Of a DNA stretch of 64,000 bases, positions 8,985-15,010 are shown piece by piece. Each line of letters starts with the position of its first letter. Positions within the stretch are counted from its first letter, which is position 1. The notes below the pieces were generated by a model. That model did no database searches and had not been told where the DNA came from. It was given only the letters and a program-made list of their open reading frames with translations. This DNA comes from Escherichia coli (GTDB taxonomy: Bacteria; Pseudomonadota; Gammaproteobacteria; Enterobacterales; Enterobacteriaceae). The stretch lies in the NCBI RefSeq assembly GCF_022846255.1, contig NZ_AP025682.1; one strand, given 5' to 3'. Position numbers and translations under genes: made by a program.

Positions 8985-10097
8985 ATGAAAAAAATTACAG
9001 TGGCACTTTCTGTGGTTGCGGCATCTGTTCTGATGGCAATGTCTGCACAAGCGGCAGAAATCTATAACAAAGACGGTAACAAACTGGATCTGTACGGCAA
9101 AGTTAATGCAGAGCATTACTTCTCTTCTTCAGCTAGTGATGACGGGGATAAAACTTATGCTCGTATGGGTTTCAAAGGTGAAACTCAGATTAATGACCAG
9201 TTAACCGGTTTTGGTCAGTGGGAGTACGAATTTAAAGGTAACCGTACTGAAACTGAAGGTTCTGATAAAGATAAAACTCGTCTTGCGTTTGCAGGGCTTC
9301 GCTTTGGCGATTATGGTTCGCTCGACTATGGTCGCAACTACGGTGTAGCTTATGATGTTGGCGCTTGGACTGACGTGCTGCCGGAGTTTGGTGGAGATAC
9401 CTGGACTCAGACTGATGTATTTATGACCCAGCGTGCTACTGGCGTAGCGACCTATCGTAACAATGATTTCTTCGGCTTGGTTGATGGTCTGAACTTTGCT
9501 TTGCAGTATCAAGGTAAAAATGATAGTGCTGCAAAAGTGAATAACTGGAAAGGCCGTGACGAAGTTGAATCTAATGGTGATGGCTTTGGTCTGTCAGCTA
9601 CTTACGATTATGAGGGATTTGGCGTTGCTGCAACCTATGCAAAATCTGACCGTACTGATGGGCAGGTATCCTATGCTAAAGACAGCCCTCTGAATGCCTC
9701 TGGTAAAACTGCTGAAGTATGGGCTACGGGCCTGAAATATGATGCAAACAACATTTACCTGGCTGCAACTTATTCTGAAACTCAGAATATGACAGTCTTC
9801 GGTGATGACCATATCGCAAACAAAGCGAAAAACTTTGAAGCTGTTGCTCAATACCAGTTTGATTTCGGCTTGCGTCCGTCCATCGCTTACCTACACTCTC
9901 GCGGTGAAAATATTGGTGCGTTCGGTAACCAGGATCTAGTTGAATACATCGACGTAGGTGCGACTTATTACTTCAACAAAAATATGTCCGCTTTCGTTGA
10001 CTACAAGATCAACCTGATTGATGAAAGTGAATTTACCAAAGCATCTGAGGTTGCAACCGACAACATCGTTGCTGTTGGTATGACCTACCAATTCTAA
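8985..10097 (+). CDS. General bacterial porin, OmpC/OmpF/PhoE (GBP) family, divergent paralogue
   Basis: 370 aa; signal peptide ending [20 protein letters not shown], internal [25 protein letters not shown]-terminal YQF typical of 16-strand porins. Confidence 0.9.
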
Positions 10098-10253
10098 TTT
10101 TGGTAGGTAAGAATATGCGGGAAGGGAGTGATGTCACTGCCCGCATATAGGTGGCACCCTCATGCCACCTTTGAAGAGGCAATTTTATTGCCTCTTCTCA
10201 ATTTAACTTCATGTTATTTATTACCCTTTTATTGATTTGAAACTCTATTGTTG

Positions 10254-10279
10254 GGGCGCTTTGTTGCGCCCATTTTTTT
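10254..10279 (+). terminator. Rho-independent terminator of the porin gene
   Basis: GGGCGC-tttgtt-GCGCCC hairpin followed by ATTTTTTTA. Confidence 0.7.
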
Positions 10280-10350
10280 ACACCAATTAGGTAAAGTTAT
10301 TTTTAAGTAATCGAGTAACTTGATCCTACCCACGTAATGTGGACACGGCC

Positions 10351-11205
10351 CTAAGCGAGATTATGGTTTTCAAATTGTTCCGGGCTGAGACCGCCACAGG
10401 CACTGTGACGACGCCAGCGATTGTAATCACACTCGATATAATTAAACACCGTTGCCCGCATTATTTCCCGGCTGCTAAAGCGTTCCCCGTGGATACATTC
10501 CACCTTCAGCGAATGAAAGAAGCTTTCCACACAGGCATTGTCATAACAGTAGCCTTTCGCACTCATACTGCCACGCAGGTTGTGTCGCTTCAGCAGCGCC
10601 TGATAATCCCCTGAACAGTATTGACCACCACGGTCCGTATGAACAATGACGCTTTCCGGGCGTCTTCTCCGCCACAACGCCATTTGCAGTGCATCACAGG
10701 CCAGTTGTGCTGTCATTCGCGGTGACATCGACCAGCCAATGACGGCGCGTGACCACAGGTCGATGACTACTGCGAGATACAACCAGCCCTCATCGGTACG
10801 CAAGTACGTGATGTCACCCGCCCACTTCTGGTTCGGGCCACTGGCGCTGAAGTCCTGCTCCAGCAGATTCTCCAATACGGGCAGACCATGTGCACGGTAG
10901 CTGACCGGGCTGAACTTCCGGCTGGCTTTCGCCCGCAGCCCCTGACGACGCAGGCTGGCGGCAATGGTTTTAATATTGAACTCCGGCAGTTCGTCAGCAA
11001 GGCGGGGATCACCGTATCGCTGCTTTGCCTCAAAGAATGCCTTATGGACAGCGGCATCGCAGGTGAGCCGAAACTGTTGGCGCAGGCTCATCTGGTGACG
11101 ACGCCTGAGCCAGACATACCAGCCGCTGCGGGCAACCCGAAGTACACGACACATCGCTTTGATGCTGAACTCTGCCCGATGATTTTCGATGAAGACATAC
11201 TTCAT
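10351..11205 (-). CDS. IS3 transposase OrfB (catalytic DDE domain; normally expressed as OrfAB by -1 frameshift)
   Basis: 284-aa ORF overlapping the orfA stop by 4 bp; DDE integrase-like sequence. Confidence 0.85.
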
Positions 11206-11501
11206 TTCAGGCGCTTCGCGAAGTATGTCGCGGCCTTTTGGAGGATGGCCAGTTCCTCAGCCTGCTCCGCCAGTTGTCGTTTAAGGCGGACATTTTCAGC
11301 GGCCAGTTCGCTTTCGCGCTCTGACGAACTCATTTGTTGCTGCTGTTTACTGCGCCAGGCATAAAGCTGAGATTCATACAGGCTGAGTTCACGGGCTGCG
11401 GCGGCCACACCGATGCGTTCAGCGAGTTTCAGGGCTTCGTTACGAAATTCAGGCGTATGTTGTTTACGGGGTTTCTTGCTGATTGATACTGGTTTTGTCA
11501 T
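11202..11501 (-). CDS. IS3 transposase OrfA (HTH/leucine-zipper)
   Basis: 99 aa, [32 protein letters not shown]... closely resembles IS3 OrfA. Confidence 0.9.
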
Positions 11502-13024: not shown

Positions 13025-14274
13025 TTTTGTACCTCAGGGACACTTAGCTCAACCATTTCCAGCAGCATTTCACTGGCAAGACGCAGGGATTCCACAGGCA
13101 AAAACTCTCTGGTTGAGTGAAAATTGTGCGCCCCTGTAAATATATTAATAGTAGGCAGCCCTTTTGGGGTGATGACGCTACCATCATAACCACCGCGCAT
13201 AATCAGTGGTTTTGGTGTAATGCCAAGGTTACGCATTGCCTGTCTAACGTTATCTAAGATTGCAGGTGTTTTATCAAGCGCTGGTTTGACATTTTCATAT
13301 ATATCGGTTAACACTAATGTTATTCTTTCACTCTTCCAGCGCTGATTAATACTCTTAACAATGTTCTCGAGTACGGCTTTACGTTGTTTATATCCTGTTA
13401 ACTCAAAGTCCCGAATAGCAATATCAAGCGTGGCGCTGGCTGTATCACCATGGAGATTATGGACCCAATAATATCCTTCCCGTTTTTCAGTATGCTCAGG
13501 CCTTTCTTTTTCAGGTAATGCGGCGATAATTTCCGTTGCTATACACAACGCATTAACAAGCTTACCTTTAGCACTCATTGGATGTGCTGTAACACCACGA
13601 ACTGTAATTCGTGCACTACCTGCATACCAGTTTTCAACAACATATTCTCCAATCTCACAACAGTCGAGACAGATACCAAAATCAGAATTCAGTTCACCAA
13701 CATCAAGCGCTTTTGCCCCTCTGATACCGGTCTCCTCATCAGGCAAAAGAACAAGACGAATATCACCATGAGAAAAGGAGGGTGTATTAATCATATATTT
13801 GAGAGCTTCAACACCTGCTGCAATGGCAGCTTTGTCGTCAGCCCCCAGCAAGCTGGTGCCATCAGTTACAATAATATCCTGACCGATATAGTTGAGTAGT
13901 TCTGGATTATCCTGTGGGGATAGTTTTTCCACACTCCCTGCAAACGGTATAGCACCTCCGTTATACTTTTTCACTCGGAAAGCATGTGTATCTGTACTGT
14001 GGTCCGGAGCTGTATCAAGGTGTGCAAAGAATACGATAGAAGGTGCATCAGGAATATTAGCGGGTAAATGAATTGTGGCAATAGCATTTTCTTTTATGCT
14101 TGTTTGTACCTCTGGAACATCAGAAAATTGACTTACAACATATTCTGCCAGTTTATATTGATTTTTACAGCTTGGAAGCTCCTTGCTACCATCAACCGAT
14201 GTCGTATTTATTTTTGTGTAATATAAAAAAGTCTCAATTATTTTCTCTAAGTCAATGCGTTTTTTCATGATCAT
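13021..14274 (-). CDS. M20-family metallopeptidase, peptidase T (tripeptide aminopeptidase)-like
   Basis: 417 aa; PepT-like motifs FFAHLDTAPD, TLLGADDKAAIAAG, HGDIRLVLLPDEETG, RGGYDGS; alternative start at MKKRIDLEK 6 bp downstream. Confidence 0.85.
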   Translation of the reverse strand: MIMKKRIDLEKIIETFLYYTKINTTSVDGSKELPSCKNQYKLAEYVVSQFSDVPEVQTSIKENAIATIHLPANIPDAPSIVFFAHLDTAPDHSTDTHAFRVKKYNGGAIPFAGSVEKLSPQDNPELLNYIGQDIIVTDGTSLLGADDKAAIAAGVEALKYMINTPSFSHGDIRLVLLPDEETGIRGAKALDVGELNSDFGICLDCCEIGEYVVENWYAGSARITVRGVTAHPMSAKGKLVNALCIATEIIAALPEKERPEHTEKREGYYWVHNLHGDTASATLDIAIRDFELTGYKQRKAVLENIVKSINQRWKSERITLVLTDIYENVKPALDKTPAILDNVRQAMRNLGITPKPLIMRGGYDGSVITPKGLPTINIFTGAHNFHSTREFLPVESLRLASEMLLEMVELSVPEVQK

Positions 14275-14665
14275 ATACCTAATTGTTTACTATCAATATC
14301 CTGACTATCTATATTTAGATAATATCCTGCAAAAATTAGTGAGTATAGAAAAGGTCGTCAGTTCCTGACTGGTAAATGTCCCTTCGAGATTTATTAGAGT
14401 CATAATTTGCCTCATCCCAATACAAAAAACAATACGAAAGTATGAAAAAGTGTAGTGATCAACAAAATATTGCCACGTTTGTTTCGGTGTTATTGGAGAG
14501 GTTTTTGGTGTTTTGTCCTTACGAGCATCACGCAGTTGTTTGCCCCATCTTGTCATCGTGGAAAGACGACATCAATAGCTTGGTGTAACTCTGGTCAACA
14601 ACCAGTTGCACGGAGTTGCATATGAATTCAGGAGCTTTTCACTGGTGCACCTATATTGGCATATC

Positions 14666-14790
14666 TGAACCGCCCCGGAAATCCTGGAGACTAAACTCTC
14701 TGAGAAAGAGGCAAACAGGATGACTAAAAAAACACGTTTTTCCCCCGAAGTCCGTCAACGGGCAGTTCAATGCTTTGTCGAATAAACATT
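14666..14790 (+). mobile_element. IS629/IS1203-like (IS3 family) left-end remnant with truncated orfA
   Basis: TGAACCGCCCCGGAAATCCTGGAGACTAAACTC terminal repeat followed by ATG encoding MTKKTRFSPEVRQRAV, then premature stop; rest of the element absent. Confidence 0.6.
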
Positions 14791-14883
14791 TACCTGAACG
14801 ATTAACTGCAACGGCTATCCTTACCGACAATCAACGTCAATAAAAATCTGTACTGACTCGTCAGCACTGGGTTCGATCAGTAG

Positions 14884-15010
14884 GAACATGAATTCAAAGG
14901 CCACCTTGCTGAATCTCAAGACTCCTCCGATTCCAAAGATAAACCCCGTCTTAAGTTCGCTGGCCTGAAATTCGGTGACTATTGTCTATATCGGGATCAC
15001 CACGGTTGTG
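14884..15010 (+). pseudogene. Internal fragment of a second porin gene (OmpC-family)
   Basis: Translates to EHEFKG...DSKDKPRLKFAGLKFGDY, paralogous to residues EYEFKG...[19 protein letters not shown] of the intact porin at 8985-10097; then frame is lost. Confidence 0.5.

Follow-up and report, generated by a model that had tools for sequence, protein, structure and literature searches.

A chromosomal island of Escherichia coli carries a complete general porin gene and, further downstream, a short piece of another porin gene, which raises the question of where the complete gene comes from and whether the two are copies of one another. The locus covers positions 8985-15010 of a stretch of 64,000 nucleotides of contig NZ_AP025682.1 (assembly GCF_022846255.1), the whole of which is referred to here as the window. 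The answer for which the data argue, with a probability estimated at about 85%, is that a porin cassette of the type found in the phage-plasmid P7, containing an nmpC gene, has been captured on a chromosomal island of the pheV/leuX type, and that the short piece is a separate, decayed scrap of a lambdoid-type nmpC gene. Both the gene family and the P7 type of allele had been described and annotated before, P7 nmpC being a recognised porin precursor gene (PMC6906374), and the chromosomal capture adds a little to this knowledge.

Identity and class of the intact porin gene

The intact porin gene (8985-10097, + strand) is a complete open reading frame (ORF) of 370 residues. It begins with a 23-residue signal peptide (8985-9053, + strand; cleavage between AQA and AEIYNK), of the same length as in the annotated P7 nmpC, and it is followed by an intrinsic terminator (10254-10281, + strand; GGGCGC...GCGCCC and then U7). 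This terminator is the last of four stable hairpins of the 3' untranslated region (UTR; 10095-10285), for which the minimum free energy is -70.2 kcal/mol (z = -6.3), and an Rfam scan of 7000-30000 finds nothing within 8985-15010. The protein is matched by Pfam Porin_1 (PF00267) with 493 bits over residues 29-370, at a curated cut-off of 23.7, and by PHROG 410 with 693 bits, and the alignment shows the PEFGGD motif of L3 as well as the C-terminal YQF.

When phage genomes are searched by tblastn, the intact porin shows 97.3% identity with NmpC of the phage-plasmid P7 and 96% with the porins of the phages JL22 and phi456, which are P1-like; many lambdoid phages have "OmpD/NmpC" genes for which the value is 80-82%. 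The pairwise amino acid identities taken from the alignment with the reference genes fall into the same order, being 98.6% for the porin of the P1-like plasmid pFLI21_1 and 97.6% for P7 NmpC, then 83.8% for the lambdoid phage ev099, 83.3% for the chromosomal nmpC-like gene of avian pathogenic E. coli (APEC) O1, 81.6% for the O111 island porin and 79.9% for the DLP12 nmpC of K-12, and finally 65.2% for PhoE, 63.1% for both OmpC and OmpN, and 59.6% for OmpF. Salmonella OmpD is 76% identical. In a search of the solved structures, OmpK37, OmpC, OmpK36 and PhoE are about equally near (E ~1e-130 to 1e-135), with OmpF slightly more distant, and therefore the comparison with the structure database alone does not classify the intact porin.

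The classification is obtained from a neighbor-joining tree (200 bootstraps), calculated with OmpC, OmpF, PhoE, OmpN and NmpC as references, as had been suggested in a preliminary description of this DNA. The intact porin is found inside a P7-type subclade (100% bootstrap), which has a chromosomal porin of E. fergusonii as its sister (98%), and the wider NmpC/Lc/OmpD clade, which is without OmpC, OmpN, PhoE and OmpF, is also recovered with 100% bootstrap. These sequence comparisons place the gene with the P7 type inside the NmpC/Lc/OmpD clade; it is not an allele of OmpC, OmpN, OmpF or PhoE. In this clade, nmpC is the E. coli homologue of OmpD; nmpC is prophage-borne, is often inactivated by insertion sequences (ISs) and is reported to have an mRNA that is a target of RybB (PMC3333887; PMC11677980).

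The RefSeq name of the gene, given by the Prokaryotic Genome Annotation Pipeline (PGAP), is nevertheless "porin OmpC", because the protein passes the subfamily-level NCBIfam model NF007841 (532 bits at a cut-off of 484); it is below the equivalog cut-offs of both PhoE and OmpF. This label should be corrected to P7-type NmpC. The closest genome, that of E. coli O157:H16 Santai (NZ_CP007592), to which positions 1-18287 of the window are 99.8% identical, with the match ending at 18287, has its own intact ompC in the arrangement apbE-ompC-rcsD, separate from the island porin, and therefore the island gene is an additional porin and not a relocated allele. The preliminary description had proposed an extra, horizontally acquired general porin with its own signal peptide and terminator, located next to an IS3-family element on the island, and all of this is borne out, the IS3-family element being an intact ISEc16 at 223 nt downstream of the stop codon. 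Its term "OmpC-family" is acceptable at the superfamily level only, since the gene belongs to the P7 type of the NmpC/Lc/OmpD clade.

The porin cassette, its borders and its carriers

The homology with the P7-type (P1-like) phage-plasmids is not limited to the gene itself. It covers a cassette of 1.5 kb (8800-10321, + strand), which includes the promoter region, the coding sequence and the structured 3' UTR, and it stops at 8800 and at 10321, so that 185 bp 5' of the ATG and 224 bp 3' of the gene are included; over this length the blastn identity is 95.2% with P7 (AF503408) and 95.9% with plasmid pFLI21_1. The inner part of the cassette (8922-10229) also has counterparts in lambdoid phages, namely nmpC/lc cassettes of 74-75% identity, including lc of PA-2 (J02580), which are placed there between Q and the lysis genes. 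In P7 the nmpC block has odaA on one side and ssb on the other, and the homology breaks off about 10 bp before it reaches the ssb stop codon. Since homologous cassettes occur in three kinds of carrier (P7-type, lambdoid and island), the cassette appears to behave as an autonomous moron. No phage genes are annotated next to it in the window, and a phage origin is suggested by the 95% identity with P7, which extends through the noncoding flanks.

Both borders of the cassette coincide with mobile elements. On the left is the remnant of a TnpB pseudogene of the IS200/IS605 family (8230-8748, + strand), as known from the PGAP annotation of the Santai locus and from the CPxCG and RuvC-like motifs in the ORF fragments; it is frameshifted and truncated at its N terminus, and its 3' end is next to the left border of the cassette. 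The TnpB 3' end, together with the right-end region (8230-8800), reaches the exact start of the P7-like sequence, and this junction may record how the cassette joined the island. On the right is an intact ISEc16 of the IS3 family (10321-11564, - strand; orfA 11202-11501 and orfB 10351-11205), and the cassette ends exactly at the terminal TGA of this element. ISEc16 is without a target-site duplication (the flanking triplets are ACT and CGG), and the carrier strain AHM21C2872I matches the window up to 11564 and diverges directly after it, which indicates that ISEc16 is a recombination junction and not a simple insertion. Both island junctions are probably formed by mobile elements, the dead IS605-family TnpB at the left border and ISEc16 at the right one. 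The locus would show in this way that junctions made by ISs can fix an accessory porin of a phage-plasmid on a chromosomal island. Beyond ISEc16 there is a terminal remnant of about 120 bp of an IS903-like element (11576-11697, unstranded), which is 82% identical to the IS903B end in pFLI21_1; the IS903 terminal inverted repeat, GGCTTTGTTGAATAAATC, is seen there in the reverse complement.

The distribution of the porin has been surveyed in 5,426 complete E. coli genomes and in the plasmids of PLSDB. In the genomes, the intact porin is found at 102 plasmid places, compared with 498 plasmid places for the ssb-lyz marker of the P1/P7 backbone, and therefore approximately one in five P1-like plasmids carries it; the P7-type nmpC would be a self-contained moron on this fraction of the P1/P7-like phage-plasmids of E. 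coli. The cassette is present in 113 PLSDB plasmids (108 from Escherichia, three from Klebsiella and two from Salmonella). A copy with at least 99% identity to the porin of the window occurs in only 12 records of the complete genomes, and all those inspected are chromosomal; nine chromosomal carriers keep the whole arrangement of 8700-15300, and three keep its left part only. The identity of the plasmid alleles ranges over 93-98%, whereas the chromosomal copies hardly differ from one another, and from this difference a capture from plasmid to chromosome is inferred.

The porin relic and the surrounding island

The second porin feature starts 4.77 kb past the intact gene, close to the distance of about 4.8 kb given in the preliminary description, and has a length of 116 bp (14866-14981, + strand) instead of the 130 bp stated there. 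It corresponds to nt 220-329 (codons ~74-110) of a lambdoid-type nmpC gene and contains a 6-bp insertion. Its alignment to nmpC-type genes is significant (E = 3e-33; against E. coli genomes, E = 4e-27), and the nearest genes are those of the lambdoid type, with nucleotide identities of 84.5% to the nmpC-like gene of APEC O1, 83.6% to DLP12 nmpC and 81% to the gene of the lambdoid phage ev099. The identity with the intact island porin is only 69%, and therefore the relic is not a copy of the intact gene. The translation reads STGFDQ*EHEFKGHLAESQDSSDSKDKPRLKFAGLKFGDY, where the asterisk is an in-frame TAG that replaces a conserved Trp codon (TGG). Further conserved residues are also altered (GFGQWEY into GFDQ*EH, NR into HL, T into P and A into K), as expected for a sequence that has been decaying neutrally for a long time.

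At its 3' end the porin relic is joined base to base to a relic of the C-terminal part of psiE (14982-15117, + strand), which comprises the last 146 nt of that gene (nt 266-411) and is 81% identical to K-12 psiE, with two deletions that amount to 10 gap positions; the two relics are similarly diverged from their E. coli counterparts. On the other side there is a left-end remnant of 103 bp of an IS629/IS1203-like element (14666-14768, + strand; 94-96% identity to the IS629/IS1203 ends), which is truncated and which forms the left boundary of a relic/nhaC module that is common to other strains. Between this remnant and the porin relic there are 97 bp with no assigned feature, and the relic is therefore near an IS629 end, as had been noted, but does not abut it. 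Neither junction of the relic is an IS terminus, and no other piece of a porin gene is present nearby.

The relic is found with at least 99% identity in 336 complete E. coli genomes, most of which are without the intact gene. The region equivalent to 14668-18233, with the IS end, the porin relic, the psiE relic, nhaC and patB, is present in strain 4/0 with other genes on its left and without the intact island porin. Because the relic is present in 336 genomes and the intact gene in about 12, the relic seems to have arrived on the island as preexisting inert DNA, together with the psiE-relic/nhaC/patB module. It is a long-decayed scrap of a lambdoid-type nmpC that probably became joined to the psiE scrap by illegitimate recombination. 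No intact parent of the relic has been identified, since neither its distinctive motif ESQDSSDSKDK nor its exact 23-mer is matched anywhere among 100,044 species-representative genomes; the repaired relic of 40 residues, used as a protein query, shares too few words to return anything. The relic is considered to be without functional significance other than marking the nhaC-patB island module, and it gives no information on whether this strain has lost a second porin.

The segment between the two porin features contains a gene pair for a major facilitator superfamily (MFS) transporter and a PepT-like M20 peptidase (11834-14274, - strand), which is not part of the porin story; it is 86.7% identical at the nucleotide level to a segment of E. 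coli plasmids of about 62 kb. The right end of the island is defined by a P4-type integrase gene (27562-28824) and tRNA-Phe (29022-29097), which are followed by core genes (speC and others). The left part contains yjhG and yjhF and a mtnK-mtnA-aldolase-transporter cluster. This cluster (3622-7786), to the left of the cassette, codes for a GRP-family sugar transporter, an L-fuculose-phosphate aldolase-like protein, a methylthioribose-1-phosphate isomerase (mtnA) and a methylthioribose kinase (mtnK); to our knowledge these genes are absent from K-12, and the cluster resembles the clusters for the salvage of S-adenosylmethionine by-products (the dihydroxyacetone phosphate, or 'DHAP', shunt) that are reported in some pathogenic E. 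coli.

In Santai the left-side yjh genes are next to sgcR/yjhI/yjhH, and in K-12 they are near leuX; this suggests a recombination or an inversion between islands of the pheV and the leuX type. No contiguous cover of 15000-34000 is found among the complete E. coli genomes surveyed, and the mink strains 3CM and 4FM have part of the island arrangement of 18288-29097. A full-length match to isrC, an Hfq-binding island small RNA of Rfam, is located at 19355-19477 (- strand), with 135 bits at a gathering score of 39. The Santai island has a further annotated 'porin' of 350 residues (Santai 5052361-5053410), beside genes for DUF4886 and dicarboxylate metabolism; at the matching distance the window has core genes instead.

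Expression signals, predicted function and alternative explanations

The upstream region of the intact gene has been aligned with those of other nmpC-type genes, seven regions in all, and a promoter region is predicted at 8858-8930 (+ strand). It includes a degenerate CRP-like site, TTTGAttatgaTCACG (8858-8873, + strand), a -35 box TTGAAA (8902-8907, + strand) and a -10-like GATAAAT (8923-8929, + strand). The TTGAAA, followed 15-17 nt on by AGAT(A/G)AA, is kept in all seven regions, and the leader motif GCAGTGAC, as well as the stretch CAGTGGC at codons 5-7, is also common to all seven genes. The latter stretch could base-pair with the 5' seed of RybB. The promoter, CRP and RybB assignments are each read from the alignment, and the corresponding sites are best regarded as putative. 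A C1-operator-like sequence, seen by eye in the upstream region, was dropped, as it requires an indel.

The ratio of nonsynonymous to synonymous substitution rates (dN/dS) of the intact porin is 0.12 when compared with P7 and 0.10 when compared with pFLI21_1, and for the lambdoid copies it is 0.07, at a synonymous divergence (dS) of ~1.4-1.5. From these low values it follows that the porin protein has been under purifying selection. The AlphaFold model, calculated from an alignment of 22 sequences, has 17 strand segments in the expected pattern and superposes on the structures of OmpC, OmpK36 and OmpF with template modeling (TM) scores of 0.80-0.89 (0.82-0.89 for OmpC and OmpK36). Together with the PEFGGD of L3 and the C-terminal YQF, an aromatic β-signal, this fold agrees with that of a 16-stranded β-barrel. 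Among the matches in the Protein Data Bank there is no solved structure of a porin of the NmpC/Lc/OmpD type, and the nearest chains, of OmpC, OmpK36 and OmpK37, are 59-62% identical. The differences from the lambdoid NmpC proteins are found mostly in the external loops, especially as an insertion of 14 residues in L4.

According to this model, the intact porin would be exported by the Sec system, assembled by the β-barrel assembly machinery (BAM) and function as a trimeric, 16-stranded general-diffusion porin. The cell, with its own OmpC, OmpF and PhoE, would gain a fourth or fifth type of channel, which differs from these in its external loops, in particular by the L4 insertion, and which may compete in the outer membrane with both OmpC and OmpF. 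Expression of Lc of PA-2 lowers OmpC and OmpF and in this way blocks OmpC-dependent phages. By analogy with Lc and with Salmonella OmpD, expression of the island porin could shift the porin mixture and thereby alter which receptors phages and colicins find and how permeable the cell is to solutes and antibiotics; on its native phage-plasmid, the P7-type porin could act as a lysogenic-conversion gene, as Lc does. Extra porins can change the phage and colicin receptors and the drug permeability of a strain, and it is possible that carriers differ in phage typing or, when OmpC or OmpF is lost, in their susceptibility to carbapenems and cephalosporins. A wider proposal would be that the P7-type cassette is a porin moron exchanged among lambdoid phages, P1-like phage-plasmids and islands, whose loops and displacement of OmpC and OmpF protect against porin-dependent phages and colicins, and that the chromosomal copy has been domesticated and set free of cAMP-CRP by its mutated CRP site; in this complete form the proposal is rather unlikely.

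Three other origins of the two porin features have to be compared with the capture of a P7-type cassette and a separate relic. The name "porin OmpC", and the passing of NF007841 on which it is based, would fit an ompC or ompN allele of the strain that has been relocated to the island, a possibility on which the preliminary description had made its own reading depend. This model is only of the 'subfamily' kind, however, and relocation is ruled out by the identities (63% to OmpC and OmpN of K-12 and 59% to OmpC of Santai), by the clustering with NmpC/Lc/OmpD and by the intact ompC of Santai; the gene is on an island of the pheV/leuX type and not at the canonical locus, apbE(ftp)-ompC-micF-rcsD. 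An origin from a decayed lambdoid prophage, as for the nmpC of DLP12, would agree with the fact that nmpC-type genes are typical lambdoid morons, as well as with the match of the inner cassette to the lambdoid cassettes. Such an origin is nonetheless highly unlikely, given that the nucleotide identity is 93-98% to the P7 type, for coding sequence and flanks, versus 74-78% to the lambdoid copies, that dS to the latter is ~1.4-1.5 and that lambdoid genes are absent from the flanks. The third possibility, that the fragment is a second copy of the island porin which has been destroyed by IS629 in this lineage, had been advanced in the preliminary description as the IS-mediated loss of a paralogue. 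It is suggested by the short distance, less than 100 bp, that separates the porin fragment from an IS629-like end. This idea is not sustained and has to be considered more improbable still than the lambdoid origin, as the fragment is nearer to lambdoid nmpC (84%) than to the intact gene (69%), the IS remnant is truncated and lies 97 bp away from it, with unrelated DNA in between, the fragment is fused at its other end to psiE and not to an IS, the relic is shared by 336 genomes versus about 12 with the intact gene, and the relic module occurs in strain 4/0, where the porin is absent.

A more serious alternative concerns the activity of the captured gene, which might be a quiescent or poorly expressed passenger with no current phenotype, like nmpC or ompN of K-12; this is less probable than an active gene but clearly more probable than any of the three origins discussed above. 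Several observations that agree with it also weigh against the interpretation of the locus as a captured cassette with a functional porin. The CRP-like site TTTGAttatgaTCACG is changed at two positions when compared with the perfect consensus TGTGAttttgaTCACA (TGTGA-N6-TCACA) of the P7, pFLI21 and O111 island copies, a consensus promoter scan scores no sigma-70 promoter on the + strand upstream of the gene, only about 12 chromosomes keep the porin, and nmpC and ompN are described as quiescent in some E. coli strains (references cited in PMC3333887; PMC11677980). In addition, the structure model is of moderate confidence only, with a mean predicted local distance difference test (pLDDT) score of 71, and the literature searched has only annotation-level mentions of the P7/P1-like porin and reports no tested function for it. 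Concerning the direction of transfer, nothing in P1 itself matches the cassette or its flanks, the flanks of the cassette in the window are not P1 backbone, and the capture from plasmid to chromosome, which probably occurred once, is deduced from diversity and abundance only. The idea of a silent passenger is opposed by the intact ORF with its dN/dS of ~0.1 and by the -35 TTGAAA, the -10-like box, the 5' UTR and the terminator, which are conserved with expressed relatives; the chromosomal copies, being at least 99.9% alike, are too similar to show selection after capture.

The nearest known system is NmpC of P7 (AF503408), together with its P1-like copies, with which the captured cassette shares 97.6% of the amino acids and ~95% of the nucleotides over 1.5 kb, including the noncoding flanks, as well as the length of the signal peptide, the L4 insertion and the terminator. 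Unlike P7, the island copy is chromosomal, is without ssb, lyz and odaA as neighbors, and is bounded by the TnpB relic and ISEc16; two positions of its CRP-like site have changed, and the 60 bp far upstream are more diverged. Lc of PA-2, NmpC of DLP12/qsr' and Salmonella OmpD are members of the same clade, at 76-84% amino acid identity, and have in common with the intact porin the -35/-10 region, the 5' UTR motifs, the CAGTGGC at codons 5-7 and a moron-like organization, whereas the lambdoid copies differ in their saturated dS (~1.5, for the lambdoid copies only), in loops L4, L5 and L8 and in the carrier element. OmpC, OmpK36, OmpN (OmpK37), PhoE and OmpF share the Porin_1 fold, the PEFGGD and the YQF, with full-length structure matches to E = 1e-135, but at 59-65% identity and at other loci none of them is an orthologue of the island porin.

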